In this document: in pieces, positions 10,609 through 58,777 of the stretch
How positions within the stretch are numbered: position 1 is the stretch's first letter
How the letters are laid out: each line of letters opens with the position of its first letter
Source of the DNA: a virus
Virus record (IMG/VR): IMGVR_UViG_3300042502_001732
Span: 1 to 64,000 of that record
Reading direction: 5' to 3' (one strand)
Length of the DNA: 64,000 nucleotides
Position numbers and translations under genes: made by a program
The notes under the pieces: model-generated
Told to the model about the DNA's origin: nothing
The model's database searches: none
The model's input: only the letters and a program-made list of their open reading frames with translations

Positions 10609-11925
10609 TTAATTTGCAAATTTTTCAAGTAATGAAAGATCTTCTTCGTTGATCATTTCTTCTTCTTCATCAGATTGAACGATACTCAATGTAGAATAAT
10701 CAATTTTCATGGGTTGAACCATTCCTCTCGGACCGTATCTATTTTTCATCATGCCCAATCTAATCAATCCCAATTCTTGATCTTCTTCATTTTGGAAAAT
10801 AGATACAATAACATCAGCGGTGGCTGCTAATCCTACAGATTCTGAAATTGTAGCCAAATCTGGATTGTCAGTATTGAAACCTGACTTGTTAAGCTGTGTA
10901 GCACTAATAATAGGACATTTAAATATATAACTCATAGCACGAACCTGCTCACATATGTATTTCACACGTTCATAAGAATTAGAACCTATAGTGGAATGAA
11001 GCAAGTTAACATAATCTATAACAATAGCATCTACTTTCTCGCCAGAATCTTGGAATTTTTTGACAAATGCTGTGAGTTGTTTCGGAGTAACTGTACTAGG
11101 AGGAAATTCTTTAATAAAAATTTTACTCTTTGGAAATTTCTCTTTCTCAGATTTCAAAAAATGCTGTAAAGATTTACAAGAAGATTGAAATTCTTTAAGT
11201 GGAATTTTTGTTATATTTGAACATATTCTTTTTGCATATAACATTTCACTCATTTCAAGTGAAATGACAAGAACTGTTTTATTTTGTTTAGCAATGTTTG
11301 CTGCTATATTACCAAGAAATATACTCTTGCCGATGTTTGTCTGTCCAGCGAAAATATATAATGATTTCCCATCTTCTCTAAATCCTCCACCCAATGCATT
11401 ATCTAACCACTCCCACTTTGATGGAATTGTTTTTTCAATATTTGTAATATCGTCAATGATACGATCAGAATCTGAGAATATTTCTAATCCATTGTCAGTT
11501 ACTAATTTAATATTGCATGATTTTTCAAACTGCTCAAGTATATTTGATGTGTCTACAACACCATCAGATACATCATTTGCAACTTTTAATAAAGTGTGAT
11601 ATACACTCTTCTCTTTTAAGAAAATTTCAGTGTTTTCATATAGTTCATCAATATCTAAATTTTTATCTAGATCTTTAAAAGATGCTATGAGTTGTTTAAA
11701 TCCTTCTTTCAGAGAATCTTCAACTAAGTATGACTTAATTTCCGTCATACTTGGCAATTTTTGCCTTTTATCGTAAAAATTTCTAACTATTTCAAAATAT
11801 TTCGAAATTCTTTTGTCTTCAAAATATTCGGGATTTATATAATCTGCAATTGCATTTAAATAAGTTGCATCAATTAAGCATTGTCTCGCTAATATTTTTT
11901 CAAAATGTTCTAAATCAAGATTCAT
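10609..11925 (-). CDS. 41: Replicative DnaB-like helicase (gp41)
   Basis: Walker A GQTNIGKS, SLEMSE, IDYVNL, SATQLN, KNRYG. Confidence 0.95.
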   Translation of the reverse strand: MNLDLEHFEKILARQCLIDATYLNAIADYINPEYFEDKRISKYFEIVRNFYDKRQKLPSMTEIKSYLVEDSLKEGFKQLIASFKDLDKNLDIDELYENTEIFLKEKSVYHTLLKVANDVSDGVVDTSNILEQFEKSCNIKLVTDNGLEIFSDSDRIIDDITNIEKTIPSKWEWLDNALGGGFREDGKSLYIFAGQTNIGKSIFLGNIAANIAKQNKTVLVISLEMSEMLYAKRICSNITKIPLKEFQSSCKSLQHFLKSEKEKFPKSKIFIKEFPPSTVTPKQLTAFVKKFQDSGEKVDAIVIDYVNLLHSTIGSNSYERVKYICEQVRAMSYIFKCPIISATQLNKSGFNTDNPDLATISESVGLAATADVIVSIFQNEEDQELGLIRLGMMKNRYGPRGMVQPMKIDYSTLSIVQSDEEEEMINEEDLSLLEKFAN

Positions 11926-12577
11926 ATTTGTTCAAAAACCACTTTTCGGCTGCTTTCCACTCATCTGTAAACTCTTTTAATCCTGGAGATTCATGATTTA
12001 TATAGATATCTCCAACACCAACCTTATGACCCATATTATGGCAATTTAAAGAAAAGTCAAGATCATAAAAATGAGCCTTCGCTGGATTTGTAATATCAAA
12101 TCTTGCAGTTTCAATCACTTTACGATTCATTGCCATGAAAACACCATCCAACATAACCACTCTATGTGGATATGGTCCAAAACTTGTCATATTTTTAATC
12201 GTTTCGTTTCCATGCGCTACCGCACCATGGAGATTTCCTCCTCCAAACCCACCGCCCATGATGTGCCATAATGCTGGACTTTTTAAGTTTATTTGAGATG
12301 TTCCAGCCACTCCAATCAAATCATATTTTTCAAATAATTTTATTAGTTTTGGAGTGGGGTCATATTCTAACCAAATATCATCATGAGCTAATACCAAAGC
12401 GTCCCAATCTTCTTCTAATGCCTTATCTATGGCTTTATTATACGCCTTTGGTAATCCTTCACTATTGTTTAAATCAAAAGCTATATTTATATCTAAATTT
12501 ATTTCTTTTATGCTTTTTAATAAAGCGGTATCTTTAGGGTCGGTTTTTCTTGTCGCTGAAAAGAACGCAATTCTCAT
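11915..12577 (-). CDS. GT-A glycosyltransferase-like protein
   Basis: GLPKAYN, AHDD, GVAG, LDGVFMA, HFYDLDFSL, HESPG. Confidence 0.75.
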   Translation of the reverse strand: MRIAFFSATRKTDPKDTALLKSIKEINLDINIAFDLNNSEGLPKAYNKAIDKALEEDWDALVLAHDDIWLEYDPTPKLIKLFEKYDLIGVAGTSQINLKSPALWHIMGGGFGGGNLHGAVAHGNETIKNMTSFGPYPHRVVMLDGVFMAMNRKVIETARFDITNPAKAHFYDLDFSLNCHNMGHKVGVGDIYINHESPGLKEFTDEWKAAEKWFLNKYES

Positions 12578-19010: not shown

Positions 19011-19038
19011 AGTAAAACACGTTTTTCGAAATTGTCAA
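19011..19038 (-). promoter_or_regulatory. Sigma70-type promoter for DNA polymerase
   Basis: TTGACA-N16-TTTACT, 7 nt before GTG 19003. Confidence 0.55.
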
Positions 19039-20237
19039 TTGAACTTCAGTATGTATTTTCTAGATGATGAACCGTATGGAGTGTCTAGAGCTTCCATGAA
19101 AGCTCCTATATTTTCTGGTCTTTCTAAAAATCTCGCTTCTCCAATTTTACGAAGTTCTGGGATTAATTGATAATATCTAGCTCTATTTTTCCAATTCAAT
19201 AATTCTTCTACTTTGTTTTCTAAATCTTCTCCTGTTTTAAATTTTAAAACATTCAGCGCATTTTCATATGTTGTCATATCTTGAACTAGACATGGGATTC
19301 CCAAACATGCAGCTTCAATGTATTTGATATCAGATTTACTTCTATTAAATGAATTATCTTGCAAGGGAGCTAAAAACAATTGAGCATTTAAACTATCTAA
19401 AAAGTTAGGGTATTCAATTAATGTCTTCCAAGGATGAAATTCAATTTTTCTATTTTCAACTAAATGTCTAATGGGAGGAGGTACAGCTCCGATAAAAACA
19501 AATTGATATTTATCAACATTTTTAGAAATAAATTCTATAACATGAGTAAAATCATCTTGTTGTTTTGTCTTATTTCCAACATCAAAATGTGCTCCAGATC
19601 CTGAATATACAATGCGAGGTTTCTTTTTATTTTTATCAAAATTATCAATGATTTTACGATAATTGAACTGATGACCGATCCACCAATATGGAGGGAAATT
19701 AGGTATTACCGAAATTTCTTCTTTACCAGTTCTTAATTTATATAAATCTCTCATGTGTTTACATGTAACTGTAACCTCATCAGACATATTAATCATATCA
19801 ATGCAGTTTTGGCGAATTTCATCATTATCAAACGCTGGCTTATAGATATTATAATCTGGAATGTCTTCTCTGAATACGACATCATCAACTTCATATATAA
19901 TTTTAAATCCAAGTTCTGGTTGTATACTTTTCAAAAACTCAAAAAACATTTTCTGTTCTTTACTTGCTTGTCTTTGAAGCTTAATAGTTTTTATATCTCT
20001 GTACCATTCTTTATCAAAAATCATTTTAGTAAGAGATGCTGAATCTCCCATGTTGGACATATTGATATGAAGTTCTGGCCAACCTATTCTCCACTGACCA
20101 CACCCCTGACGATCTGCCATGAAATTTAAATATCTAGCTGGTCCATTTGGAACACTATTGATTTCTGGTGCTTTGGAAATTACACTATTTGAAAATGGTG
20201 ATGTTGGAAACGGAGATGGAAATGGATTGGAAAACAT
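19035..20237 (-). CDS. GT-B glycosyltransferase-like protein
   Basis: GCGQWR, YEVDD, IPNF, SGSGAH, APLQDNSFNRSKSDIKYIE. Confidence 0.75.
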   Translation of the reverse strand: MFSNPFPSPFPTSPFSNSVISKAPEINSVPNGPARYLNFMADRQGCGQWRIGWPELHINMSNMGDSASLTKMIFDKEWYRDIKTIKLQRQASKEQKMFFEFLKSIQPELGFKIIYEVDDVVFREDIPDYNIYKPAFDNDEIRQNCIDMINMSDEVTVTCKHMRDLYKLRTGKEEISVIPNFPPYWWIGHQFNYRKIIDNFDKNKKKPRIVYSGSGAHFDVGNKTKQQDDFTHVIEFISKNVDKYQFVFIGAVPPPIRHLVENRKIEFHPWKTLIEYPNFLDSLNAQLFLAPLQDNSFNRSKSDIKYIEAACLGIPCLVQDMTTYENALNVLKFKTGEDLENKVEELLNWKNRARYYQLIPELRKIGEARFLERPENIGAFMEALDTPYGSSSRKYILKFN

Positions 20238-30125: not shown

Positions 30126-30152
30126 TTGACTTTTATTAAAAATATGTAAAAT
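30126..30152 (+). promoter_or_regulatory. Sigma70-type promoter for the kinase/glycan operon
   Basis: TTGACT-N15-TAAAAT, 6 nt before ATG 30159. Confidence 0.6.
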
Positions 30153-30158
30153 ATTTGA

Positions 30159-30893
30159 ATGAGAATAGCAATAAGCGGTGCTTCAAATTCTGGCAAATCA
30201 ACATTAATAAATTCATTTCTTCGAAGATGGCCAATGTATTCAACTCCGATGAAATCTTACAGAGATATTCTAAAAGAACATAATTTAGAGCATTCGACTA
30301 AAACAAATGAAGAGACTCAATTATTAATATTAGATTCTATGATGAAAGTCCAAGAAGGATTTAAATCTACAGATAATATAATTTTCGATAGATGCACGTG
30401 GGATAATCTAGCATATACATTAGTTGCTAATTCTTATGAACAAGTTTCCGATGAAGTCACAGCAGCTTCTATTTCTTTTGTAAAAGAAAGCATGAAAGAT
30501 ATAGATATCATATTTTGGTTAGAATATGATTCAGATATTAAAGTTTTAGATAATGGCACAAGAGATACTAATACTGATTATATCAAAGAAGTTGATGGTG
30601 TTTTTAAACAATTATATGAACATTATTCTAATGATTTAGAAACTGATATTTTCTATCCAAAAGAAGATTGCCCAGCTATTATTCCAGTAGAAGGAAAAAC
30701 CGTCGATGATAGAATTTTTTATATTTCTCAATTTATTGATGATACAGGTAGATTAATCGAGCCTGATAGTTCTTTGTTTAGTGAAGAAAATCTTCAAATA
30801 TTAGAACAAATGCTTACTGATCAAACTAAAGCAAAAAATGATGATGCTGAAGTTATAAATTTAATGAAAGAAATTAGCAAATTTAAAAAATAA
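30159..30893 (+). CDS. P-loop nucleotide kinase-like ATPase (AAA_28/dNMP-kinase-like)
   Basis: ISGASNSGKST, FDRC..D. Confidence 0.7.
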   Translation: MRIAISGASNSGKSTLINSFLRRWPMYSTPMKSYRDILKEHNLEHSTKTNEETQLLILDSMMKVQEGFKSTDNIIFDRCTWDNLAYTLVANSYEQVSDEVTAASISFVKESMKDIDIIFWLEYDSDIKVLDNGTRDTNTDYIKEVDGVFKQLYEHYSNDLETDIFYPKEDCPAIIPVEGKTVDDRIFYISQFIDDTGRLIEPDSSLFSEENLQILEQMLTDQTKAKNDDAEVINLMKEISKFKK

Positions 30894-31714
30894 TGTTAAA
30901 TGATAAGAAAATAGGGGTTGGTATTATCACTTACAATAGAATTGACAACCTTAGAAAATTACTTGATTCATTAAATCAATGCGAATCAATTATTGATGAA
31001 TTGATAGTTGTAAATGATGGAGAATCTATTAATGATTTTTCAAAATTTCAATTTCCTATTCTAAATAGCAACTGGGTTAATAACCCGCAAAATCTTGGGG
31101 TGGGTAAGTCTAAAAATATAGCTCTTAAACATTTACATGAATCTGGATGCGATCATCTATTTTTAATAGAGGATGATATTTTTATTAAAAATAAAAATGT
31201 ATTTGAAAGATATATAGAATCATCCAAGATATCAGGAATACAGCATTTTATGTATTCTCAACACGGCGTTATGAACAAATCATGGCATAGTGGAAATGCA
31301 AATCCTATAATGATAATTGATTATGGAACTTTGAAAATTCCATTATATCCAGCAGCCGTTGGTGCGTTTTCTTATTTTTCCAAACTTTGTATAGAAAAAG
31401 CAGGATATTTTGATGAAAGATATTATAATGCATGTGAACATGTAGATCATACATATGAAATTATTAAAAAAGGCATGCATCCTCCATTTTGGTATAATGC
31501 GGATATTGAAAATTCTTGGGAATATCTAGAAGACGAAGCTTGGAGTATGGAACAATCTACAATTTCATCTAAGCCTAATTTAAATCAAATCGTCTCTAAA
31601 TCTGATGAAATTTTCTTTTTGAAGCATGGAACTGTGCCAACAGCTGTTCCTTTTTCTAGAGAAGAAGAAGTAATACAATCTATTAAAAAAATTAAAAAAG
31701 AATATGGACAATAA
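30893..31714 (+). CDS. Glycosyltransferase family 2
   Basis: IITYNR, VNDG, NLGVGKSKN, IEDD, GYFDE. Confidence 0.85.
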   Translation: MLNDKKIGVGIITYNRIDNLRKLLDSLNQCESIIDELIVVNDGESINDFSKFQFPILNSNWVNNPQNLGVGKSKNIALKHLHESGCDHLFLIEDDIFIKNKNVFERYIESSKISGIQHFMYSQHGVMNKSWHSGNANPIMIIDYGTLKIPLYPAAVGAFSYFSKLCIEKAGYFDERYYNACEHVDHTYEIIKKGMHPPFWYNADIENSWEYLEDEAWSMEQSTISSKPNLNQIVSKSDEIFFLKHGTVPTAVPFSREEEVIQSIKKIKKEYGQ

Positions 31715-32267
31715 TATTTGGGAAATAGCTAAAAATAAATATAAAATTCAACAAATCCAAGAGGAATGGTTTTGGTTGATTGACACTGCAATTGTAACAC
31801 CATACAAAGATAAGAAAATCAACATTTTTGAAATCGGTTGTTATGATGGAGGATCGACTTATTATTTGAGTAATTTTGCAAAAAATATGATAACTGTGGA
31901 TAATAATAATCCATGCCGTTTCGATCCTTCAAGTATCCCAGCGAGTGAAAGTTATCAATATTTTGGTGGTGACAGTCACGATCCAAATATAATAAAAAAT
32001 GTAAGTAAATTTGATTGGGATTTTGTTTTTATTGATGGCGATCATTCATACGAAGGAGTCAAAGCTGACTTTTATAATGTTTTACCGTACCTTAAAAAAG
32101 GAACGCCTGTCGCATTTCACGACATTGCCATTTCACATTTTCATCATACACATGGATGCTATGTCGGTGAGTTTTGGAGAGATTTGAAAAATGAATACAA
32201 AGCAACTAAATTTGAAGAATACCAAACTGATAAAGAATGGGCTGGAATAGGTCTACTTTTCGTATGA
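31704..32267 (+). CDS. Class I SAM-dependent methyltransferase (Methyltransf_24-like)
   Basis: EIGCYDGGS, GDSH, FIDGDHSYEGV, FHD. Confidence 0.85.
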   Translation: MDNNIWEIAKNKYKIQQIQEEWFWLIDTAIVTPYKDKKINIFEIGCYDGGSTYYLSNFAKNMITVDNNNPCRFDPSSIPASESYQYFGGDSHDPNIIKNVSKFDWDFVFIDGDHSYEGVKADFYNVLPYLKKGTPVAFHDIAISHFHHTHGCYVGEFWRDLKNEYKATKFEEYQTDKEWAGIGLLFV

Positions 32268-32284
32268 AAAGACTAAATATATGA

Positions 32285-33040
32285 ATGGGACAAGGAAGAT
32301 ACTCAAAATATCCAAACAAGGCGGGGATTTATAAATTCAAATGCATTATCAACGATAAGATTTACATAGGAAAATCTATAAACATTAGGGATAGGATAAA
32401 CAGTCATAGATATACACTATCAGAAACAAATAAAAGAAAAAAAGGATATTTTGAAAGTGCTATCAAAAAATATGGATGGGATTCTTTTGAATTTGAAATA
32501 TTAGAGATTGTGGAGGATTTTGATAAACATAAAGATAACGATGATCTCTTAAAGAGAGAAGCATATTACATAAAGTTATTTGATTCTACTGATCCAAATA
32601 AAGGGTATAATTTATGTAAGTATTCAAGTGATAGAACTGGGGTTCCGTGTTCGGAAGAATCTAAAGAAAAATTAAGACAGGCTAATTTGGGAAAGAAACA
32701 CTCAGAAGAAACCAAACTTAAAATGAAAGAAAGCTCTGCTAAATTAACTAAAGATAAACAAAAAAGACAATCTGGTAGACCTCTTCCAGAGGAAACCAAA
32801 AGAAAATTATCTAAAATTAATAAAGGAAAGACACCATCTAAAAATACTATAGATGCTATTAAAAATAGAGTTCGTAAAAGGTATAAAGTCCAAACTCCCA
32901 GCGGTGATTGTGTTGAAATTGTTAATATGGCTAAGTTTTGCAGAGATGAAAAATTAGGAAGGGATAGTATGGATAGGTTAGTTAGAGGGATTATAACTAA
33001 CTATATGGGGTGGACATTTATAGAAGCTGTGATAATATAG
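32285..33040 (+). mobile_element. Free-standing GIY-YIG homing endonuclease (Seg-like) with NUMOD3 repeats
   Basis: GIY...YIGKS, RE..YI, GYN; repeated SEE(S/T)K.K; interrupts the glycan locus. Confidence 0.85.
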
Positions 33041-33176
33041 GAATTATTAAAGATCCGATGTCAGAAAAACATAAAGAAAAAATTAAACAGTTAAATTTAA
33101 GAAAACCTAAATCTAGAAAAATTAAAAATGTAAAAATGTAGAAATATTAGCAAATGAATAATATAAAAAATAAAGT

Positions 33177-33920
33177 ATGGACTTAACATTAATAACTTGC
33201 AATTATAATACGCCGATACAGATAGTAAGACTGTTGCAAAGCGTAAAAGAAACATCGTCACAGTTACCGAAGGTTATTGTGATGAATACATCAACAACCC
33301 AAGATTCTGATAAAATTTTATCAGATAATGATATACCTTATTATAATTTTAGAGGAGGATCGCATGGTGAATCTGTTAATTTAGCCTTTAAAAAAGTAAA
33401 AACTAAATATGTTCTATTGGTGGATTCTGATGTAATATTTTTAAAAGATTTTCTCCCAGCTTTTGAAAAATTCAAATCTTCAAATTTAACTCTTATGGGT
33501 AAAGTTGTCGGCAATGTCGCTGGTAAAAATCTGTATGAAAGAGTGGAACCTTGGTATTGTTTCATGAATTATGAAATTTTGAAAAATAAAAAAATTGAGT
33601 TTTTCGATAGAGAAAGAGTTAAGAAAAGCAAAGAGGACAATATAAAAGTATATGATATAGGTTCTACAATGTTTGAAGATGTTGAAAAATCTAATCTACT
33701 GATTGGAGATGTAGATTTAGAAAACAAATATTTTAAACATTACGGAGGAATGTCATGGCATTGTCAAAAATATAATTCTTCAGAAGATGATACTGATATT
33801 GATTTTGGTGGAACTCATCCACATGAAATTCTTTGGAATATTGGTCAACAAAGAAAAAATCAATACGATATCGAAACAGAATACTTAAAAGATATAGATA
33901 TTAAATCTTGTTTTAAATGA
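33177..33920 (+). CDS. Glycosyltransferase family 2-like
   Basis: LITCNYNT, HGE..N, LVDSD, YDIG. Confidence 0.75.
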   Translation: MDLTLITCNYNTPIQIVRLLQSVKETSSQLPKVIVMNTSTTQDSDKILSDNDIPYYNFRGGSHGESVNLAFKKVKTKYVLLVDSDVIFLKDFLPAFEKFKSSNLTLMGKVVGNVAGKNLYERVEPWYCFMNYEILKNKKIEFFDRERVKKSKEDNIKVYDIGSTMFEDVEKSNLLIGDVDLENKYFKHYGGMSWHCQKYNSSEDDTDIDFGGTHPHEILWNIGQQRKNQYDIETEYLKDIDIKSCFK

Positions 33921-34669
33921 ATAAATGTTTTGTAAAAGTTGGAGGTGGGTTAGGAAATCAATTGTTTCAAATAGCCGCCGCTTATTCTTATTGTAAGAAA
34001 TATAATAAAAAATTATATATAGATATATCAGATTGGAGCGCATCTCAAGGAGTTAATCCAATAAAATATAAAGATTCAATATTTAAAAATTTTGAATACC
34101 ATTTATATTCTACTCCAGAAACTACAAAAATTGAAGAAGAAAGTTTAATTTATAAAGAACTTCCATATCATGATGGGGATGTATCGTTTCATGGCTATTT
34201 TCAATCTGATAAATATTTTATAGAACATAAGGATGAATTTGTAAATTGTTTAAGTTTGCCAAATCTTGATAGTTCCTTTATGCAAGAAAAAAATGTTGCA
34301 TTTCATATAAGAAGAGGAGATTATATTAGTTATTCTCATATATATAATGTGTGTAATACTGATTATTTTAATAAACAATTTGAAGCATTTAAAGATTATC
34401 AAATAAATGTTTTTACTGATTCTCCCGACTTTATATGTAATGAATTTAAAAATCAAAAATTCAATTTAATAATATCACATTCGGAATTAGAAGACTTGAC
34501 TTTAATGAGTTTGCATACAAATATAGTATGCAGTAATTCATCATTTTCTTGGTGGGCATCTTTGCTAGGCAAAGAAAAAGATAACATAATTGTTCCAAAT
34601 AGATGGTTCAATAATTCAGAAAATCATTATGACATATACAGATCAGACTTTACAAAAATCGAAGTATAA
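33917..34669 (+). CDS. GT11 alpha-1,2-fucosyltransferase-like
   Basis: GGLGNQLFQ, GYFQS, HIRRGDY, SNSSFSWW. Confidence 0.9.
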   Translation: MNKCFVKVGGGLGNQLFQIAAAYSYCKKYNKKLYIDISDWSASQGVNPIKYKDSIFKNFEYHLYSTPETTKIEEESLIYKELPYHDGDVSFHGYFQSDKYFIEHKDEFVNCLSLPNLDSSFMQEKNVAFHIRRGDYISYSHIYNVCNTDYFNKQFEAFKDYQINVFTDSPDFICNEFKNQKFNLIISHSELEDLTLMSLHTNIVCSNSSFSWWASLLGKEKDNIIVPNRWFNNSENHYDIYRSDFTKIEV

Positions 34670-35414
34670 TTTAACTGAAACATCATTCATAATACATTTT
34701 AGAAGAGATTCCGATGATAGAATTTTCAATCTTAAATGTATTTTAAATTATTTTGATACTTATATTGATTATAAAGAATTATTCATAATTAATGATGATT
34801 CTGAACTTGATAATGAATTAAAAAATCTTAAAGAAAAATATCCAAAAATATCTATAGGTTTTTTTAAAAATGATGATGTTTATCAAAGAACTTTATGTTT
34901 CAATAAAATTGCAAAAATAGCAAACGGTAAAGTGTTGTGTTTTTATGATACTGATGTTTTGGTAAAGCCAGAATGTTTACAACATGCTCAAAAATTAATT
35001 ATAACTGGAGAGTTGGATCATGTTTATCCATACAACGGATTATTTGTAGGTGTTAAAAAACCACATAGAGATTTATTAGTAAATTTTGAATTTAATAAAT
35101 TAGAATCATTATTATTAGAACGTCATATAGGTTATGACAATGAATATATGGCAGTTGGACACGATCACTCCGTTGGAGGGATGCACATGATGTCTAAAGA
35201 AGCATTTAATAAAATTGAAGGATACAACGTTAATTTTATCGGTTGGGGATGTGAAGATGTTGATATTTATACTAGATCAGGCCAGAAAAATAAAGTAGCT
35301 GGTATCAGTTCCCCTGATGCGATATGTTGGCATATTGATCATGATAATACTATAAGAACTGAGAATAAATACTATCAAAATAATTTAAATTTATTATACA
35401 GAAATAATAAATGA
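34629..35414 (+). CDS. GT-A glycosyltransferase with GT7-C (galactosyltransferase-like) motif
   Basis: YDTD, GYN..FIGWGCED; start uncertain (34590 or 34629). Confidence 0.8.
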   Translation: MTYTDQTLQKSKYNLTETSFIIHFRRDSDDRIFNLKCILNYFDTYIDYKELFIINDDSELDNELKNLKEKYPKISIGFFKNDDVYQRTLCFNKIAKIANGKVLCFYDTDVLVKPECLQHAQKLIITGELDHVYPYNGLFVGVKKPHRDLLVNFEFNKLESLLLERHIGYDNEYMAVGHDHSVGGMHMMSKEAFNKIEGYNVNFIGWGCEDVDIYTRSGQKNKVAGISSPDAICWHIDHDNTIRTENKYYQNNLNLLYRNNK

Positions 35415-36127
35415 ATTTAAAAAAACGACCCAAATTATCAGTTGCCATTCCATGTTATGAAATGAGTGGTAAGGGTGTTGAATTTTTAGAAAAATCTTTA
35501 AACATTATTAAAAATCAAAATGTAGATTTTTCTGAAATTGAAATTGTAATATCTGATCATTCTATAAATGATGATATAAAAAAATGCTGCGATAAGTATA
35601 ACAATATAAATTTAAAATATTATAAAAATGAAGAATGCAGAGGTTCAATGTCTGGAAATATTAATAGTTGTATTAGACAGAGTTCTGGGGAATATATAAA
35701 ACCATTATTTCAAGATGATTTTTTAAATTCTTCAAATTCTCTAAAAGCTATTTTGGATAATTTGAATTCCCCATGGATAGCTCATGAATATACTCATTTA
35801 GATCTTTCGACAGATTCATTTTATAATCAAAGAACTCCTTTCTATAATGATAGAATTTTAGAAGGAATTAACACAATTGGACCTCCAACAGTGACAGCTT
35901 TTTTGAATGATAATAATTATTTCGATGAAAATTTATTATGGTTTATGGATATAGAATTTTATCACAGAATGATGATAAAATATGGTCATCCTACAATTTT
36001 AAAATGTAATGACCCTATAGCTACAGTTACAACATGGAGTGGACAAACTACAGAAACATCAATCAATCAAGTTTTAATTGACAAAGAAACCAATTATATT
36101 AAATTAAAATATAATGAAAATATCTGA
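35411..36127 (+). CDS. Glycosyltransferase family 2
   Basis: SVAIPCYE, ISDHS, LFQDD, FDENL...D.EF. Confidence 0.85.
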   Translation: MNLKKRPKLSVAIPCYEMSGKGVEFLEKSLNIIKNQNVDFSEIEIVISDHSINDDIKKCCDKYNNINLKYYKNEECRGSMSGNINSCIRQSSGEYIKPLFQDDFLNSSNSLKAILDNLNSPWIAHEYTHLDLSTDSFYNQRTPFYNDRILEGINTIGPPTVTAFLNDNNYFDENLLWFMDIEFYHRMMIKYGHPTILKCNDPIATVTTWSGQTTETSINQVLIDKETNYIKLKYNENI

Positions 36128-36689
36128 GTTATTTTTAAAATATCAAAGTGATAAAAATGAAGGATCTTTATATCCTTCAGATCATCTTAGGGGTCACACA
36201 TATGGAAAATCATATGATAAAATATTTGAAAAATTTGATAGAAAATCAAATTTCAATATATTAGAAATTGGAATTCAAAAGGGTGGTAGTATGCTGGCAT
36301 GGAAAGATTACTTTGAAAATTCTAACATTTATGGTGTAGATATAGTAGATTGTATTTTACCAGAATATAGACGAGAGGATTTTAATTATATATTTGATGA
36401 TATTAAATCTGATAATGTTACAAAAATTTTAAGTAATTTAACTTTTGATATTATTATAGATGATGGAAGTCATTTTTTGAGTGATGTTCTATTTACAGTT
36501 TCCAATTATCTATCAAAACTTAACGATGGCGGTGTTTTAATTATAGAAGATTGTCAGCACCCAGAGGGATGGATAGAAGAAATAGGAAAGTTGGTTGATG
36601 ATAATTATAGAATAATTACAGCTGATTTGAGATATGATAGAGGTCAACCTCAATACGATAATTTTCTAATTATTATAGAAAAACAATAA
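36114..36689 (+). CDS. Class I SAM-dependent (sugar O-)methyltransferase
   Basis: LEIGIQKGGS, GVDI, IIDDGSH, GGVLIIED. Confidence 0.85.
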   Translation: MKISELFLKYQSDKNEGSLYPSDHLRGHTYGKSYDKIFEKFDRKSNFNILEIGIQKGGSMLAWKDYFENSNIYGVDIVDCILPEYRREDFNYIFDDIKSDNVTKILSNLTFDIIIDDGSHFLSDVLFTVSNYLSKLNDGGVLIIEDCQHPEGWIEEIGKLVDDNYRIITADLRYDRGQPQYDNFLIIIEKQ

Positions 36690-36709
36690 AATTTATAATT
36701 TTAATTTAA

Positions 36710-37621
36710 ATGATAACAACCAATTTAACTGGTAATTTAGGAAATCACATGTGGCAATACGCTGTATGTAGAATGATAGCCGAACATAAAGGTTATGATT
36801 GGGGTATAAATTCAACACCAAGCCATGATTATTTTAATGGTAAAAGCCAAATGGAATTCATGGAGATTGATTATGGAAAACCTGTTGATGGTATAATTAA
36901 TTCATTTCATGAAAGATGGATTCATATACAACATGTGGATATAGTTAACATCGCGATGTTGGACAAAAGAATCTATGATATTGAAGATAACACGGTACTA
37001 TTAGGAGAAAATGGTGCATATGGTGGATTGTTTCAATGTGAAGATTATCTAATAGATAGAAAGTCTGATGTTGAAAAATGGTTTTCTATAAAACCAGAAT
37101 ATAAAAATCAATACGATAATAAATTAAAAGAATTAGGTATTGAATTGGATGAAAATTTATGCGTTATTAATTTCAGAGGGGGGGAATATAGAGGAATTTC
37201 CACGTGCTTGTTGAGAAAAGAATATTGGAAAGATGCTACCAATCATATGTTAGCAATCAATCCATTTATGGTTTTTTTAGCAATAACTGATGATCCTGAG
37301 CTGTGTAAAGAATATATGCCGTTTGATATTCAAACGTTGCATATTGATGCAGGTTTTGATTTTTATGTAGTTAATCAAGCTCATTGGTTGATAATTTCAA
37401 ATTCATCATTTGGATGGTGGGCTGCTTGGTTAAACAAAAAATCCAAAAAAACTATAGCTCCTAAATATTGGGCTAGACATAATGTCAGCAATGGGTATTG
37501 GGCTCTTGGTAATTCGTATACAAGAGGATTTACTTTTATGGATAGAGAAGGTAAATTATTCAATTATGATGATTGTTTAATTGAAGCAACTGAATTTTAT
37601 AAAAACCATAATATCATATAA
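36710..37621 (+). CDS. Second GT11-like glycosyltransferase
   Basis: GNLGNHMWQY, NFRGGEY, SNSSFGWW. Confidence 0.8.
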   Translation: MITTNLTGNLGNHMWQYAVCRMIAEHKGYDWGINSTPSHDYFNGKSQMEFMEIDYGKPVDGIINSFHERWIHIQHVDIVNIAMLDKRIYDIEDNTVLLGENGAYGGLFQCEDYLIDRKSDVEKWFSIKPEYKNQYDNKLKELGIELDENLCVINFRGGEYRGISTCLLRKEYWKDATNHMLAINPFMVFLAITDDPELCKEYMPFDIQTLHIDAGFDFYVVNQAHWLIISNSSFGWWAAWLNKKSKKTIAPKYWARHNVSNGYWALGNSYTRGFTFMDREGKLFNYDDCLIEATEFYKNHNII

Positions 37622-37623
37622 AT

Positions 37624-38487
37624 ATGAGAAAAATTTACGACTGTTTTATTTTTTTTAATGAATTGGATTTACTTGAATTAAGATTAAATGTTTTAGATTC
37701 TTATGTTGATTATTTTGTTATTTGTGAAGCTTCCGTAACACACAGCGGAATTAATAAAGAATATATTTTTGAAAATAATAAACATAGATTTTCAAAATTC
37801 TTACATAAGATTATTCATTTGAAAATTGATGATATTCCTACAAATTTTTCCAATCTTCCAATTTCATCAAACGTAAATACATTCGATGAGGAATGCGTTA
37901 ATGATATTCATTCATTTATAAATGAAACAACTCTGTTTAATAAAATAACAGAAAGTCATTTTGGTAGAGATTTTTTTCAAAAAGAATCTCTCAGAAGAGG
38001 TTTAGAGAATTGTGAAGATGATGATATTGTAATATTATCTGATTGTGATGAAATTCCAAATCCTAAAGTTTTAGAAAAAGTCGATAAGTTTATCAAAGAT
38101 TATGAATTTTTTACATTTAATCAAAAGACTTATTATTATTATATAAATCTATTGAAAGAAACTTCATGGAAAGGTTCTAGAATGGGGTTATATAAAAACT
38201 TAAAAAAATATTCATTCAATAAATTAAGAGCGCAACAAAATTGCGAAATTTCTGAAGGTGGGTGGCATTTTAGTTTCATGGGAGGTTCTGAACAAGTTAA
38301 ATTGAAAATTAAATCGTATTCACATCAAGAATTGAATACTTCAGAATATATAAATAATGTTGATAAAAACATAGAAAATAATATAGATCCATTTTTTAGA
38401 GGATCTTTGACGAAAGTTGATATTGATTCATCTTATCCAGAATATATTTTAAATAATTTGCAAAAATATCAACACATGATAAAATAA
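37624..38487 (+). CDS. GT17 (beta-1,4-GlcNAc-transferase-like) glycosyltransferase
   Basis: DCFIFFNELDLLELRL, SDCDEIP, GWHFSF. Confidence 0.85.
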   Translation: MRKIYDCFIFFNELDLLELRLNVLDSYVDYFVICEASVTHSGINKEYIFENNKHRFSKFLHKIIHLKIDDIPTNFSNLPISSNVNTFDEECVNDIHSFINETTLFNKITESHFGRDFFQKESLRRGLENCEDDDIVILSDCDEIPNPKVLEKVDKFIKDYEFFTFNQKTYYYYINLLKETSWKGSRMGLYKNLKKYSFNKLRAQQNCEISEGGWHFSFMGGSEQVKLKIKSYSHQELNTSEYINNVDKNIENNIDPFFRGSLTKVDIDSSYPEYILNNLQKYQHMIK

Positions 38488-38491
38488 ATTT

Positions 38492-39136
38492 ATGTTAGAT
38501 TTATCAAATGTAACGCTTATAGCGATGACATCTGTGAAAATACCTCAAACTATAAAAGCATTGCAATATAGTTCTAGAGATATAAAATTTGGAGCTATAA
38601 AAATTATTTCAGATATTAAACCAGATGATCTTCCTAGTGATATTATCCATGAATATACTGAGAAAATGTCTAATATAGATGATTGGAATTATTCAATTAT
38701 CTATAAACTTGGGAAGCATATAGATACCGAATTTGCTATACTTATTCATGATGATGGTTTTATTATAAATCCTAAATCTTGGAGACCAGAGTTTTTTGAA
38801 TATGATTATATTGGAGCGCCTTGGCCGTTGCCGATGGATGATTTTTCTTATAGAGATATAAATGGTGAAATTATAAGAGTTGGTAATAGTGTATCATTAC
38901 GAAGTAAAAAATTAATAGATTTACCTGTAAAATTAAATTTAGAATGGAAACCATTTCATGGCTATTATAATGAAGACGGTTTTATTTGTGTAAATTATAG
39001 ACATATATATAAAGAACACGGTATTAAATTTGCAGATATAGATGTTGCTAAATATTTTTCACACGAAACCCAATTACCAGAAACTTTTGGAATCGAACCA
39101 TTCGCCTTTCATGGAAAGAAAGGATTATTTGATTAA
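38492..39136 (+). CDS. DUF5672-like GT-A protein
   Basis: HDDGF, YDYIGAPW, GN..SLRS, NED.F, FAFHG. Confidence 0.75.
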   Translation: MLDLSNVTLIAMTSVKIPQTIKALQYSSRDIKFGAIKIISDIKPDDLPSDIIHEYTEKMSNIDDWNYSIIYKLGKHIDTEFAILIHDDGFIINPKSWRPEFFEYDYIGAPWPLPMDDFSYRDINGEIIRVGNSVSLRSKKLIDLPVKLNLEWKPFHGYYNEDGFICVNYRHIYKEHGIKFADIDVAKYFSHETQLPETFGIEPFAFHGKKGLFD

Positions 39137-39137
39137 T

Positions 39138-39815
39138 ATGAAAAAGGAAATAGTGATAGCCGCATATGATAAAGATTTACATTGGTTAAGTAGATTAAAT
39201 TCCGATGTGAAGAAAACTATATATCGAAAAGGAAACAGAAGTGAGGATATAAATGAAATTTATATAGAGAATAATAAAGGAAGATGTGTGCATACATTCT
39301 TTAATCATATTTTTGAAAATTATAATAATCTTTCTGATGTAACATATTTTGCACAAGATTATCCTTTCGATCACTGGGAAAATATAATAGAAATTATAAA
39401 TGATATTCCAACTATACAAAAAGAACAATTAAAAATAGGAGGTTATTGCGGATATCATTGGAATAGTATACAGACACCATCATCAAGTGGTGGTATTATG
39501 TGGGAATTATATCCATCCATTCATCATGGAAATGGTAATATACTTTCATGTGATAGCAAAGGACATCCTCATGCATCTGCTGATTTTCATATTGATGCTG
39601 ATAAATATTGGAATTTATTTTTTAATAACAAACCTCCTAACTTTTATGAATTCATTCCTGGGGGTCACTTTTCAATAACAAAAGAACACGCTCATTTAAG
39701 AACTAGAGATTTTTATAAAAAAGTTGTAGATTTTTTAATAGATTATGAATTTGCACCCTGGATTGTTGAAAGATTAGAGTGTTATATTTTCAATCCAAAA
39801 TATTCAACTATTTAA
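39138..39815 (+). CDS. DUF3431-like GT-associated protein
   Basis: IVIAAY, NKGR..HT...HI..NY..L, F.Q..PFDH, PW..ER; start set at MKKEIV. Confidence 0.7.
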   Translation: MKKEIVIAAYDKDLHWLSRLNSDVKKTIYRKGNRSEDINEIYIENNKGRCVHTFFNHIFENYNNLSDVTYFAQDYPFDHWENIIEIINDIPTIQKEQLKIGGYCGYHWNSIQTPSSSGGIMWELYPSIHHGNGNILSCDSKGHPHASADFHIDADKYWNLFFNNKPPNFYEFIPGGHFSITKEHAHLRTRDFYKKVVDFLIDYEFAPWIVERLECYIFNPKYSTI

Positions 39816-39820
39816 ATGAT

Positions 39821-39848
39821 TTGACATTTCAAAAAAATTTGGTAGATT
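39821..39848 (+). promoter_or_regulatory. Sigma70-type promoter for rfbH
   Basis: TTGACA-N16-TAGATT, 7 nt before ATG 39856. Confidence 0.65.
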
Positions 39849-39855
39849 TTAGAAT

Positions 39856-41145
39856 ATGATTTTAAAAGAAGATATTAAAACATTGGTAGGTAATCACGTT
39901 TCACCTTATATCTACAATGCAAAGGAATTTAAAGCTGGTAAAACACCGATATATTATTCTGGTCCATATTGGGACAATCAAGAGACAGAAGCTGCTCTAG
40001 ATTCATTTTTAAATGGTAAATGGATCACTGCTGGTGAAAAAGTTCATAAATTTGAAAGTCAGTTTTCCAAGAGGTTCAATACCAAATATGGTCATATGGT
40101 AAATTCTGGAAGTTCGGCCAATTTAATTTTAATTTCTGGTTTAAAGAGAAGATTTAATTGGCAAGATGGTGATGAAATCATTGTATCACCTGTTGGATTT
40201 GCAACTACAATTTCTGTAATTTATCAAACCAGACTAACCCCAGTTTTTGTAGATATCGAATGGGACACTTTGAACTTTGATATTGACCAAATTGAATCTA
40301 AAATAACAAACAAGACGAAGGCTATTTTTATATCTCCAGTTTTAGGAAATCCTCCAGATATGGATAGATTGATTGAAATTAGCGAAAAGCATGGAATTCA
40401 ACTTGTAGGGGATAACTGCGATAGTCTTGGAAGCAAGTGGGATGGAAAATATCTAAATGAATATTATGTAGCTTATTCAAATTCTTTTTATCCAGCCCAT
40501 CATATTTCAACAGGTGAAGGCGGTATGGTATGCACTGATGATGTCGATCTTAAAAAGCTTTTCGTTAGTTTAAGCTGGTGGGGTCGTGATTGTTATTGTG
40601 TAGGATCTGCCAATCTTCTACCATGCGGTACTTGTGGAAATAGATTCGATAACTGGCTTGAGAATTTTGATGGTGTGATTGATCATAAATACGTATTTTC
40701 TGAAATGGGATACAATTTAAAACCATTGGATATGCAAGGTGCTATCGGGTTGGTTCAGCTTGAAAAATTAGATGAAATTGAAAATAATAGAAGAATTTCT
40801 AGAGATACAATTTCTAAAATTTTCTGTAACAATATTCCGAATGTTAAAATTCCTAAAACCTTAGATAAGGCAGATCCTTGCTGGTTTGGAACTCCGTTCA
40901 TTTGTGAAGAAAGTGGATTAAAACCCGAATTAGTCAAATACTTAGAGGATAATAAAATACAGACTAGAAACTATTTTGCTGGTAATATTTTGTTACATCC
41001 AGGATACAAACACTTGGATGATTATAAAAAATATCCAGAAGCGAATAAAGTTTTAGATAAAGTATTTTTCATTGGTGCTGCTCCTCATTATACAACTCCA
41101 GTGTTTGAATATATTGAAGATGTAATTTCAAAATTTAGAAAATAA
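39856..41145 (+). CDS. rfbH: NDP-4-keto-6-deoxyglucose 3-dehydrase (RfbH/DdhC-type, DegT family)
   Basis: NSGSSANL, DNCDSLG, SFYPAHHI (His in place of Lys), GRDCYC...CG Fe-S motif, GYNLKP. Confidence 0.88.
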   Translation: MILKEDIKTLVGNHVSPYIYNAKEFKAGKTPIYYSGPYWDNQETEAALDSFLNGKWITAGEKVHKFESQFSKRFNTKYGHMVNSGSSANLILISGLKRRFNWQDGDEIIVSPVGFATTISVIYQTRLTPVFVDIEWDTLNFDIDQIESKITNKTKAIFISPVLGNPPDMDRLIEISEKHGIQLVGDNCDSLGSKWDGKYLNEYYVAYSNSFYPAHHISTGEGGMVCTDDVDLKKLFVSLSWWGRDCYCVGSANLLPCGTCGNRFDNWLENFDGVIDHKYVFSEMGYNLKPLDMQGAIGLVQLEKLDEIENNRRISRDTISKIFCNNIPNVKIPKTLDKADPCWFGTPFICEESGLKPELVKYLEDNKIQTRNYFAGNILLHPGYKHLDDYKKYPEANKVLDKVFFIGAAPHYTTPVFEYIEDVISKFRK

Positions 41146-41148
41146 TTT

Positions 41149-41964
41149 ATGATATCGGTTTTTGGAGGTACTGGATTTGTTGGTAGTGAATTTTGCCAGC
41201 AATTTAAAGATGAAGTTGCAATTATAGATAGAAATTCTTTTATCCCTATCAGTGATAAAGTTTTATATTTTATAAGTACGGTAGATAATTACAATGTATT
41301 GACAGATTCTAAAAAAGACATCAACACTAATTTAATTCATCTTATGAATGTATTGGATGAATGTAAAAATAAAAATATAGAATTTACATTTATAAGTTCA
41401 TGGTTCGTTTATGGAGAGACTGATTTACCAGCAACTGAAAGTTCTATATGTAAACCTAAAGGATTTTATTCAATAACCAAATACGCTGCAGAATTATTAT
41501 TAGAATCTTATTGTAAAACATTTAATATAAAATATAAAATCATAAGGCTTGGAAATGTTTTGGGAAATTCTGATGGTAAAATTTCTAAAAAGAAAAACGC
41601 TCTTCAATTTTTAATAAGTGAGATTAAAGAAAATAAAGATATAAATCTTTATAATAATGGCAATTTTTATAGAGATTTTATACACGTTAGTGATGTTGCC
41701 AAAGGTATCAAATATGTAATGGAGCGTGGCAACTTCAATGAAATATATAATTTAGGGTGCGGAATTCCTATAGTTTTTAAATCTATAATTGATTACGCTG
41801 TTGAAAAAACAAATTCAACTAGTAAAATTGGAATTATGGATGCTACTGATTTTCATAAAATAGTTCAAGTCGAATCTATGTACTTAGATACTAATAAGTT
41901 GAATAGTTTGGGATTTAAACCAGAAAAAAACATCTATCAAATTGTAGATGAATTATTGGAATAA
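41149..41964 (+). CDS. NAD-dependent sugar epimerase/reductase
   Basis: GGTGFVG, SSWFVYG, YSITK, RDFIHV.D. Confidence 0.9.
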   Translation: MISVFGGTGFVGSEFCQQFKDEVAIIDRNSFIPISDKVLYFISTVDNYNVLTDSKKDINTNLIHLMNVLDECKNKNIEFTFISSWFVYGETDLPATESSICKPKGFYSITKYAAELLLESYCKTFNIKYKIIRLGNVLGNSDGKISKKKNALQFLISEIKENKDINLYNNGNFYRDFIHVSDVAKGIKYVMERGNFNEIYNLGCGIPIVFKSIIDYAVEKTNSTSKIGIMDATDFHKIVQVESMYLDTNKLNSLGFKPEKNIYQIVDELLE

Positions 41965-56102: not shown

Positions 56103-56103
56103 T

Positions 56104-58773: not shown

Positions 58774-58777
58774 TTTT

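Follow-up and report, generated by a model that had tools for sequence, protein, structure and literature searches.

A contiguous block of putative glycosyltransferase genes in an uncultured lake phage raises the question of what these enzymes build and onto which acceptor the product is placed. The phage is represented by record IMGVR_UViG_3300042502_001732, a 144-kb fragment whose parent is a freshwater T4-like phage of about 205 kb; the window analyzed here comprises positions 1 to 64,000 of this record. The phage has a GC content of 29%, its polymerase and capsid are only about 31–34% identical to those of cultured phages, and no lysogeny functions turned up. An earlier note on this DNA had proposed a phage-owned, cytoplasmic assembly line that decorates virion proteins. 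This is still the single most likely reading, with a probability that falls somewhat short of an even chance.

The possibility that the locus is an assembly chimera can be dismissed. GC content is flat along the locus, phage core genes lie on both flanks, independent contigs (L002–L004) carry it again at about 99%, and at least 89% of a 10-kb stretch is present in 20 lake DNA runs from 2016 to 2024.

Composition and expression signals of the locus

Positions 30159–41964 of the plus strand hold 15 ORFs, which run without gaps over about 12 kb. In agreement with the earlier note, nine of them are glycosyltransferase (GT)-like (three GT2, one GT2/GT7C, two GT11, one GT17, one DUF5672 and one DUF3431) and two encode methyltransferases; every Pfam assignment exceeds the gathering score. 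The 5' gene encodes not a GT but a P-loop kinase, which the note overlooked together with a mobile insert. The kinase (30159..30893; AAA_28/dNK-like, Pfam AAA_28 1.9e-09) has homologues of 48–56% identity in the complete relatives G006, G007 and G008, and viral AAA_28 proteins predominate among its closest Atlas clusters; no PDB relative was found. The adjoining GT2 (30893..31714; Pfam 27.2 bits), 39–56% identical in all three complete relatives and likewise with no PDB relative found by sequence, is a candidate for the transferase of the first or an inner sugar.

The kinase and this GT2 are conserved family-wide. Behind them, ORFs 31704–41964 form an island at a fixed site, where the complete relatives have other GT and methyltransferase genes. 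The island opens with a SAM methyltransferase (31704..32267; Methyltransf_24, Pfam 1.2e-12; rhamnosyl O-methyltransferase CmcI-like, RMNT_CmcI 3.5e-05), a homologue of which is absent from G006–G008. It is followed by the mobile insert of 868 bp (32271..33138), which carries a GIY-YIG/NUMOD3 homing endonuclease ORF (32285–33040; Pfam) and is missing from contigs L002 and L003, with flanks that are 97–99% identical. Next are a GT2 (33177..33920; 9.4e-10), a GT11 of the fucosyltransferase family (33917..34669; 8.7e-17) and a GT-A enzyme with Glyco_transf_7C and GT2 signatures (34590..35414; 1.3e-11 and 3.9e-11). A module shared with bacteria begins with another GT2 (35411..36127; 3.7e-08) and comprises the second SAM methyltransferase (36114..36689; Methyltransf_24, 6.7e-06), a GT11 (36710..37621; 2.4e-10), the module marker GT17 (37624..38487; 1e-28) and a GT-A-type DUF5672 protein (38492..39136; 5.7e-11), whose homologue in Synechococcus phage RN05-S is 42% identical and annotated as GT-A-type. 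For the subsequent DUF3431 protein (39120..39815; 5.7e-13) the longest ORF begins at 39042, but homologue lengths point to the later start. The best PDB matches of its structural model (pLDDT 77) are all GT-A transferases, with TM values of only about 0.4, suggesting that it is probably a divergent GT-A fold.

A sigma70-like promoter (TTGACT-N15-TAAAAT, 30126..30152) heads the island operon 33 nt upstream of the kinase ATG, and the same type precedes the kinase homologue in G007 and G008. An internal sigma70-like promoter (36078..36105) is situated 36 nt upstream of the second methyltransferase, and a third (TTGACA-N16-TAGATT, 39821..39848) 35 nt upstream of the dehydrase ATG. This pre-late class is that of the replication genes. 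The late TAAATA motif is located at -11 to -13 in 41 of 229 ORFs, which take in nearly every virion gene; it was not found before the glycan genes of the island, and the homing-endonuclease insert has its own at -11.

Two of the three further GTs that had been noted outside the locus are upheld: a GT2 on the plus strand (2177..3106; Pfam; 66–73% identity in relatives), with a late motif at -13 that is not kept in the relatives, and a GT-A enzyme on the minus strand (11915..12577; Pfam Glyco_tranf_2_5) with a conserved sigma70-like promoter. The third (19035..20237, minus strand), encoded between the DNA polymerase and an SbcC-like gene and 60–67% identical in relatives, reaches 21.5 bits for GT-B against a cut-off of 27, and its model is poor (pLDDT 51). 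All three belong to the family core. Beyond the 64-kb window, a further GT11 and GT2 pair with a late motif lies within the structural module (genome positions 73949–75567).

Deoxysugar enzymes and ancestry of the module

The last two genes of the locus encode deoxysugar enzymes. The first product (39856..41145; PDB 3BCX, 1.9e-77) is an E1/DdhC/RfbH-type, PMP-dependent NDP-4-keto-6-deoxyhexose 3-dehydrase of the DegT family, 55% identical to a Synechococcus phage protein. Alignment to PDB entries 3BCX and 3BB8 bears out the features previously noted: a histidine (YPAHH) replaces the PLP lysine, and the CxC...C cluster as well as an upstream cysteine are conserved. The best NCBIfam match is RfbH, at 368.7 bits and thus under the 423-bit equivalog cut-off. 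The second product (41149..41964; Pfam Epimerase 1.6e-32), a short extended-SDR enzyme with GGTGFVG and YxxxK motifs, is the sole SDR within 144 kb and shows 41% identity to the SDR adjoining the same module in RN05-S. It had been called an epimerase; the family assignment stands, but the protein could equally be a 4-ketoreductase, and its motifs suggest that it is probably an NDP-4-ketosugar reductase or epimerase.

The dehydrase resembles that of the ddh/asc pathway of Yersinia and Salmonella (DdhA-D or AscA-D plus a final reductase or epimerase) in its full length, the histidine and the retained Fe-S cysteines, and the adjoining SDR could serve as the final 4-ketoreductase. However, glucose-1-phosphate cytidylyltransferase, CDP-glucose 4,6-dehydratase and the FNR-type E3 reductase were not found in the 144 kb, so that the 3,6-dideoxysugar pathway, of which the earlier note had recognized two enzymes, is incomplete in this record. 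A further difference is that the partner transferases of the phage are of the GT11 type, a family that uses GDP-sugars.

Many large phages carry the module of GT2, methyltransferase, GT11, GT17 and DUF5672, as do cultured Synechococcus phages and bacterial undecaprenyl-phosphate (Und-P) polysaccharide loci. Homologues of GT2 35411 are found in 36 viral and 46 bacterial loci, those of GT11 36710 in 41 and 51, those of GT17 in 49 viral loci and those of DUF5672 in 61 bacterial loci; GT11 and GT17 are fused in bacterial locus L171, and methyltransferases of the 36114 type adjoin the GT module in L166, L167 and L178. In Lachnospiraceae bacterium G11, Saccharibacteria and Elusimicrobia examples, which extend to DUF3431, the same four to six genes are immediate neighbours as in the phage. 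Unlike the phage loci, these bacterial loci also carry a Bac_transf priming transferase, an ABC exporter, an MBOAT protein and large membrane proteins, and identity to the phage proteins is at most 43% for GT17 and 60% for DUF5672. The GT17 of the lake phage falls in a virus-only clade of 20 members (support 99), and the virus/cell label changes 5 times over the tree versus 34 times with shuffled labels. Compared with the 43% of the best bacterial match, identity between GT17s of phages from distinct lineages, one of them a 476-kb record in which no T4-type capsid was matched, is 48–70%. Judged by this phylogeny, the viral GT17s form virus-only clades and are not repeated host captures.

Possible acceptors of the glycan

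A hydropathy scan detected no membrane segments in any locus ORF, which agrees with the earlier note; all 13 glycan genes encode soluble proteins. No credible polytopic membrane protein was found in the three complete relatives (202–207 kb) or the 144-kb record, and in 32 viral loci that contain the module no ORF has six or more hydrophobic segments. This solubility, together with the virus-only GT17 clades and the late motif of the GT11 and GT2 pair in the structural module, favours virion proteins as acceptor, as does island turnover at a fixed site, which parallels the way glycan clusters of giant viruses differ from clade to clade. The T4-like character of the phage, with no lysogeny function coming to light, and its lack of the known means of glycosylating DNA bases point in the same direction. 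The argument from soluble enzymes is weaker than had been assumed, since in bacteria the same soluble module stands beside Bac_transf and an ABC exporter: soluble GTs are normal in lipid-carrier pathways, and the phage could thus borrow host membrane parts. Also counting against virion proteins are the replication-type promoters of the island in place of the late motif.

The motif Leu-Ser-(Ala/Gly/Ser) is enriched 2.3–3-fold in the virion proteins across the family, with 43 occurrences in the structural region against 18.6 expected (gp15 7.7-fold, orf76 7.4-fold and capsid 2.3-fold by homologue set), compared with 1.2-fold in the replication region and none against 2.9 expected in the locus. 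This excess speaks for virion glycosylation; however, it is as strong (2.96-fold) in complete relatives lacking GT17 and RfbH. It therefore does not track the island and could reflect something other than glycosylation.

Alternatively, the phage GTs may act at the inner membrane face on Und-P-linked host intermediates, which a host priming transferase, a flippase or ABC exporter and a ligase would convert into an altered O-antigen or capsule. Such remodelling, which we regard as rather unlikely, would block superinfection by competitors or keep progeny off infected cells and debris. Published interpretations of similar clusters prefer it (PMC7029224, PMC12801897), and it accords with the module homologues accompanied by Bac_transf, ABC exporter, MBOAT and GT4 in Lachnospiraceae bacterium G11, with pre-late promoters of the timing that superinfection exclusion would need, with an island turnover that could mirror strain-specific host O-antigens, and with the missing first dideoxyhexose steps, for which the phage would rely on a precursor-making host. 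Yet the module travels among phages of very different hosts and forms virus-only clades that do not match host genes, GT genes with a late motif would be pointless at the host surface, and the motif excess in virion proteins is left without explanation. Moreover, host flippases and ligases (Wzx, WaaL) are selective, and we know of no lytic phage for which remodelling of host LPS by a set of several GTs has been demonstrated. Quite improbable, by comparison, is a different acceptor (a soluble or secreted carrier, host proteins, or a free oligosaccharide or decoy) or a largely dispensable, drifting accessory region. The conserved kinase with no known substrate and the highly variable island content would suit this explanation, and no test pointed out an acceptor; but the genes are intact, tightly packed and held at 97–99% identity in lake populations from 2016 to 2024, and in every complete relative a GT and methyltransferase island occupies this site downstream of the kinase and GT2, which argues for selection. 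The probability is very small that some or all GTs glycosylate a modified base as a defence against restriction, in the manner of T-even phages, RB69/DLP3 or methyltransferase/TET/GT systems. The phage is T4-like, two outlying GTs lie within the replication module, GT2 30893 faintly matches TET-associated GTs (E 0.0054, below cut-off), and multi-sugar glycans on DNA have been described (PMC13326640; bioRxiv 10.1101/2023.12.21.572611). Nevertheless, a ThyA-homologous hydroxylase or hydroxymethylase of the thymidylate-synthase family and a C5-cytosine methyltransferase are both absent from the record and four 100%-complete relatives (0 of 5), and a Tet_JBP search gave no match, its control being silent as well. 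By these searches the phage family lacks the routes by which DNA bases are known to become glycosylated, and no DNA system described so far comes close to a set of nine to fourteen GTs with sugar O-methyltransferases.

Related systems and the proposed pathway

Comparable clusters, described as LPS or cell-wall synthesis genes, have already been published for cyanomyoviruses (P-SSM2, S-SCSM1, S-SCSM2R with 13 GTs, and the S-B05/S-B43/S-H68/RN05-S/RB11-B group) and pelagimyophages. These T4-like phages are likewise large and of aquatic origin, and their hypervariable regions encode many soluble GTs (GT2 and GT11 among them), sugar epimerases or reductases and methyltransferases; one such region has been described between the replication and structural modules (PMC7029224). 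RN05-S shares the SDR, GT17 (33% identity), GT11 (28%), dehydrase and DUF5672 as common neighbours. In contrast to the lake phage, it has a cytidylyltransferase, a 4,6-dehydratase and RmlC; the lake phage also differs from this group in its freshwater origin, low GC content and divergent core proteins, and in an island anchored by the conserved kinase and GT2.

Chlorovirus capsids carry N-glycans and the fibrils of Mimivirus and Megavirinae are glycosylated as well, by soluble, ER/Golgi-independent viral GTs together with sugar methyltransferases and enzymes that tailor nucleotide sugars, in gene clusters that vary between clades. These are eukaryotic viruses with unrelated capsids, and to our knowledge GT17, DUF5672 and E1-type dehydrases are not among their described glycan enzymes. 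Freeman et al. 2023 reportedly described virion O-glycosylation of mycobacteriophages Che8, Corndog and Myrna, in which phage-encoded soluble GTs would likewise act in the cytoplasm on capsid and tail proteins. Mass spectrometry reportedly locates these O-glycans at the C-terminal tails of both the capsid and the tail-tube subunits (PMC12619734, PMC12801897), and Xanthomonas jumbo phage XacN1 has two virion glycoproteins (PMC5852040); both cases are precedents for the virion-protein reading. The candidate sites of the lake phage differ in being internal, and its GT set is far larger than that of the mycobacteriophages.

If virion proteins are the acceptor, host RNA polymerase would read the block ahead of the late genes from the promoters at 30126, 36078 and 39821. 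The dehydrase and SDR would convert a host-supplied, most likely CDP-linked NDP-4-keto-6-deoxyhexose into a 3,6-dideoxyhexose donor, with the electron-donor step performed by a host reductase. A family-conserved transferase, for which GT2 30893 and the three core GTs outside the locus are candidates, would place the first sugar onto surface-exposed serines of virion proteins, with the enriched motifs as candidate sites. The island GT2s, the GT7C-like enzyme, the GT11s, GT17, DUF5672 and DUF3431 may then extend the chain, the GT11s capping it with deoxyhexose-type sugars and the two methyltransferases O-methylating sugars. Since island gene content varies among close relatives, phage strains would have the attachment in common but differ in the outer glycan that they display.

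Genes of the locus and the phage that carries it

The glycan locus (window positions 30159–41964) comprises 15 tightly packed ORFs, all on the plus strand. Each family that the earlier note had assigned to it was recovered by Pfam above the gathering score: GT2 (ORFs starting at 30893, 33177 and 35411), GT2 plus Glyco_transf_7C (34590), GT11 (33917 and 36710), GT17 (37624), DUF5672 (38492), DUF3431 (39042), Methyltransf_24 (31704 and 36114), a DegT-family protein (39856) and an SDR (41149), the last displaying GGTGFVG and YxxxK motifs. Two genes on the same strand had been overlooked, a P-loop kinase of the AAA_28/dNK type (30159; Pfam) and a GIY-YIG/NUMOD3 homing endonuclease (32285) located on an 868-bp insert. 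In agreement with the note, no membrane protein is encoded in the locus, since a Kyte-Doolittle scan gave zero membrane segments in all of its ORFs.

The predicted model of the DUF3431 protein (pLDDT 77) matched exclusively GT-A transferases, all weakly (TM ~0.4), and the DUF5672 homologue in the cultured phage RN05-S is annotated with a GT-A-type note. No relative of the kinase was found in the PDB, and its matches in the Atlas are mostly viral AAA_28 clusters to which no function is assigned; a sequence search of two core GT2s against the PDB likewise gave no match. Outside the locus, two of the three glycosyltransferases (GTs) proposed earlier were confirmed (2177 and 11915), whereas the third (19035) gave sub-threshold matches only; its product is GT-B-like, with a poor predicted model (pLDDT 51). 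A second glycan pair, consisting of a GT11 (3.2e-30) and a GT2, is located within the structural/baseplate region at genome positions 73949–75567 (9949–11567 of L165, a later stretch of the same record). A late motif precedes the GT11 of this pair, and a nucleoside 2-deoxyribosyltransferase-like gene (L165:9162–9698) is found just upstream. Including this pair, the 144 kb contain about 14 GT-like genes in total.

The window forms the first 64 kb of an IMG/VR virus record that is linear, 143,932 bp long and 69% complete according to CheckV. The record encodes the T4-like markers portal (phrog_213), major head protein (phrog_138), DNA polymerase (phrog_262) and an SbcC-like protein, together with gp32, a DnaB-type helicase, a RecA/UvsX-like protein, the gp15 tail-sheath stabiliser and PhoH. 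This gene content identifies it as a myovirus of the T4-like type, albeit a divergent one. Its capsid protein and polymerase share 31–34% identity with those of cultured phages, the best matches being Synechococcus and Caulobacter T4-like phages, and capsid relatives are encoded on more than 598 IMG/VR stretches, including four 100%-complete genomes of 202–230 kb. A megablast search of the locus against the phage collection yielded no DNA match, and a tRNA scan of the window found none. At least 89% of a 10-kb stretch used as query is contained in 20 DNA runs from lakes and freshwater (2016–2024); no RNA run was among the holders listed. An assembly chimera with host DNA, which the earlier note had named as fatal to its proposal, is contradicted by phage core genes on both sides of the locus and by copies of it at ~99% identity in independent contigs. 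A giant virus or host contamination was ruled out by the T4-like core genes, the repeated independent assemblies and a flat GC content, which ranges from 25 to 38% in the window without a break at the locus.

Fixed-site island and portable module

To analyze the anatomy of the family, every ORF was compared by tblastn with three complete relatives (G006, G007 and G008). The conserved backbone runs in the order PhoH, kinase, GT2 (30893), a gap, four small genes, helicase, gp15 and portal. Within the gap, G008 carries five GT2s, an FkbM methyltransferase and a DUF1796 protein, and G007 homologues of 33177, 34590 and 33917 plus an FkbM-GT2 fusion and an FkbM methyltransferase. G006 harbors homologues of 34590, 35411, 36710, 37624 and 39042, without DUF5672, dehydrase or SDR. 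Since the backbone is kept while the content of the gap differs, ORFs 31704–41964 represent one allele of a fixed-site glycan island. The family core, in turn, is formed by the kinase, the first GT2 and the outlying GTs 2177, 11915 and 19035 (56–73% identity).

Differences on a finer scale can be observed among near-identical independent contigs. L002, L003 and L004 are otherwise 98–100% identical to the record, but single island genes within window positions 33917–35414 fall to 88%, namely GT11 33917 in L004 and GT 34590 in L002, which suggests allele exchange within the island. The homing-endonuclease cassette (window 32271–33138), situated between the methyltransferase and the next GT2 and provided with its own late TAAATA motif, is missing as an 868-bp unit in L002 and L003, where the flanks (97–99% identical) join over 8 shared bases. 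Virion proteins beside conserved genes also seem to be swapped, as far as the comparison of genomes indicates. For a 989-aa protein of the virion module (window 46915–49884), the three complete relatives offer no full-length counterpart and tblastn gave no match in the 99%-identical L002, although L002 should extend into the gene; this protein also leads in Leu-Ser-(Ala/Gly/Ser) content, at 10 sites where about 2 would be expected. Similarly, an 889-aa DUF285-repeat protein and its two small neighbours (window 55737–58969) found no match in the complete relatives.

Part of the island recurs far beyond this family. A search with the GT17 retrieved 49 viral loci, in about 36–49 of which GT2 (35411), GT11 (36710), GT17 and DUF5672 occur together; the dehydrase is present in 29. 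Carriers of the module formed by GT2 (35411), methyltransferase (36114), GT11, GT17 and DUF5672 include T4-like jumbo phages of 222–372 kb and two records of ~477 kb without a match to the record's capsid. GT17 and dehydrase adjoin in the cultured Synechococcus phages S-B05, S-B43, S-H68, RN05-S and RB11-B and are also neighbours in a 642-kb uncultured phage. RN05-S has five genes in common with the locus (SDR, GT17, GT11, dehydrase and DUF5672), but in addition encodes a cytidylyltransferase, a 4,6-dehydratase-like gene and RmlC.

In bacteria, GT2, methyltransferase, GT11, GT17 and DUF5672 (plus DUF3431) are contiguous. The module of Lachnospiraceae bacterium G11 lies beside a Bac_transf priming transferase, an ABC exporter, an MBOAT protein and a GT4, and by these neighbours its locus is a lipid-carrier surface-polysaccharide locus. 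A membrane protein is found near the bacterial homologues in 41 of 45 loci, about the same as expected for random 20-kb bacterial stretches, and the count was therefore judged uninformative. In the GT17 tree, the window copy falls within a virus-only clade of 20 (99*), and the label virus or cell changes 5 times, compared with 34 times when labels are shuffled; the best bacterial GT17 shares 43% identity. In an uncultured gammaproteobacterium (L171:8132–10858), a single fusion protein of 908 aa combines the GT11 with the GT17 of the module, which argues for consecutive steps on the same glycan.

Proposed sugar pathway and predicted timing of expression

Over its full length, the 39856 protein can be aligned with E1 of Yersinia, the CDP-6-deoxy-L-threo-D-glycero-4-hexulose 3-dehydrase of the 3,6-dideoxyhexose pathway (3BCX; E 1.9e-77). 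It displays the histidine-for-lysine exchange of E1, DdhC and RfbH, reading YPAHH where wild-type 3BCX has AHH and the H220K mutant 3BB8 has AKH. A DCYC...C motif and the cysteine of an upstream NCD align with E1, with a 4-residue insert; the aligned cysteines correspond to the [2Fe-2S] ligands of E1 (C...CxC...C). The RfbH equivalog model NF011936 scores 368.7 bits against a cut-off of 423, and by sequence the protein is thus a close E1/RfbH homologue below the certified equivalog. Of the partners E3, DdhA and DdhB no candidate was found in the 144 kb, which lack PF00175 (FNR-type reductase, the E3 role) and PF00483 (NTP_transferase), encode one SDR only and leave about 31% of the genome missing. 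Homologues of the RN05-S cytidylyltransferase and RmlC are likewise absent from the 144 kb, and the sole match of the RN05-S 4,6-dehydratase-like protein is the SDR of the locus. The dehydrase would therefore need host precursors and a host electron donor, unless these functions are encoded in the missing part.

Two promoter classes could be distinguished. In its exact form, the late promoter of T4 (TATAAATA) shows no enrichment (13 found, 16.8 expected); the informative late motif is the shorter TAAATA, which keeps a constant spacing to the ATG. It starts 11–13 nt before the start codon in 41 of 229 ORFs, nearly all virion genes among them, compared with 0–1 ORFs at other offsets (examples at window 25472, 45238, 49935 and 62691). 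Upstream of the locus, a retropepsin-like protein of the 'Zn_protease' family (PF05618; window 28174–28620) is encoded in the midst of small genes with late motifs. The second class is a sigma70-like TTGAC[AT]-N15-18-TAnnnT. In 11 of its 13 upstream occurrences, it begins 33–37 nt ahead of the start codon (examples at window 29049, 30126, 39821 and 43573) and precedes replication-module genes, 29083, the start of the locus at 30159, 36114, 39856, 42324 and the helicase at 43608. Within the locus, the late motif is restricted to the homing endonuclease. G007 and G008 have retained the kinase promoter, and all three relatives the late motifs of gp15 and portal. Sigma70-like promoters, combined with the lack of late motifs on its glycan genes, mark the island as a pre-late operon set. 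Given the short distance of both classes from the ATG (TAAATA at -11 to -13, the -35 hexamer at -33 to -37), the predicted transcripts would have almost no leader; a Shine-Dalgarno-like sequence is not evident ahead of these starts.

Possible acceptors of the glycan

The earlier note had favoured virion proteins over the host envelope as the target. We retain this ranking, albeit with somewhat less than even confidence in virion proteins, but its argument from soluble enzymes is weak, as membrane steps could come from the host. Phage-encoded soluble GTs, a feature of virion glycosylation of the mycobacteriophage type, are present in the locus. Precedents are virion-protein glycosylation in mycobacteriophages, as summarised in PMC12619734, and two virion glycoproteins of the Xanthomonas jumbo phage XacN1 (PMC5852040). 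The motif LS[AGS] is enriched 2.3-fold in the structural region and 1.2-fold in the replication region, with zero in the locus, and its excess in virion proteins (2.3–3-fold) is family-wide. It is equally strong in relatives without GT17 and dehydrase and thus cannot be tied to the island of this record; as all complete relatives have some GT island, a GT-free control is lacking. The excess can only be tied to the conserved GTs of the family, with the island as a variable extension.

That the glycan is instead built into the host envelope appears possible but rather unlikely. The lipid-carrier polysaccharide context of the bacterial module and the pre-late promoters of the island point in this direction, and published opinion favours it (PMC7029224, PMC12801897). 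However, the module spreads among phages of different hosts and forms virus-only clades, and some GT genes carry late motifs. We know of no lytic phage with an experimentally shown rebuilding of the host envelope, which also counts against this target. Gtr-type serotype conversion, a known envelope system of temperate phages, combines a membrane GtrA flippase, a GtrB bactoprenol GT and a polytopic serotype-specific GT; a polytopic membrane protein is absent from the locus, the record and the three complete relatives, and the gene set is that of a T4-like lytic rather than a temperate phage. The priming transferase and exporter that accompany the bacterial homologues in Und-P loci are missing in the phage, where neither priming transferase, flippase/ABC exporter nor polymerase/ligase occurs in locus or genomes. 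DNA is a highly improbable target. The glycosylation routes described for DNA, among them T-even hmC, RB69 5hoC and the MT/TET/GT systems, depend either on a ThyA homologue (PMC13326640) or on a methyltransferase combined with TET (bioRxiv 10.1101/2023.12.21.572611), but PF00303 (ThyA family) is absent from the record and four complete relatives, as is PF00145 (C5-methyltransferase) from all five genomes; a search for PF12851 (Tet_JBP) gave no match, with the positive control equally silent. Some other acceptor is improbable, though less so than DNA.

With its T4-like core, its variable island and a module common to cultured cyanomyoviruses, the locus resembles the 'LPS-like' clusters of aquatic T4-like phages. 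Large soluble GT clusters are on record for S-SCSM2R (13 GTs) and, similarly, for P-SSM2, S-SCSM1 and pelagimyophages, and the S-H68 dehydrase is already annotated in GenBank; the locus accordingly belongs to a described type. What appears to be new, as far as genome comparison can tell, is the placement of the island at a fixed site that follows a conserved kinase and GT2, a five-gene module common to bacteria and many phages, the predicted promoter assignment and the probable exclusion of the known DNA routes. Multi-GT clusters make up 5–8% of some abundant aquatic phage genomes, and to our knowledge no experimental test of their target is on record. The analysis narrows the question, in that DNA is an unlikely target, the promoters predict pre-late expression of the island, and the island occupies a swap region at a fixed site after the conserved kinase and GT2. 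Since the five-gene module is also carried by cultured Synechococcus phages, the question is open to a bench test.

Speculatively, this widespread freshwater T4-like family might coat its particles with a strain-specific, O-methylated, 3,6-dideoxyhexose-containing glycan. The kinase/GT2 core would start the chain on Leu-Ser-(Ala/Gly/Ser), the swappable fixed-site GT island would diversify it, and the portable GT2-methyltransferase-GT11-GT17-DUF5672 module would spread the system among unrelated large phages. With the host envelope as target, the locus would be the first case of a lytic phage that rewrites a cell surface by means of several enzymes. With the particle as target, the glycosylation of phage virions would no longer be confined to mycobacteriophages but would include common aquatic myoviruses of the Gram-negative type, with consequences for adsorption and stability as well as for grazing and for recognition by defences. 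A strain-specific coat, if true, would parallel in phages the O-antigen variation of bacteria and the clade-specific glycans of giant viruses.
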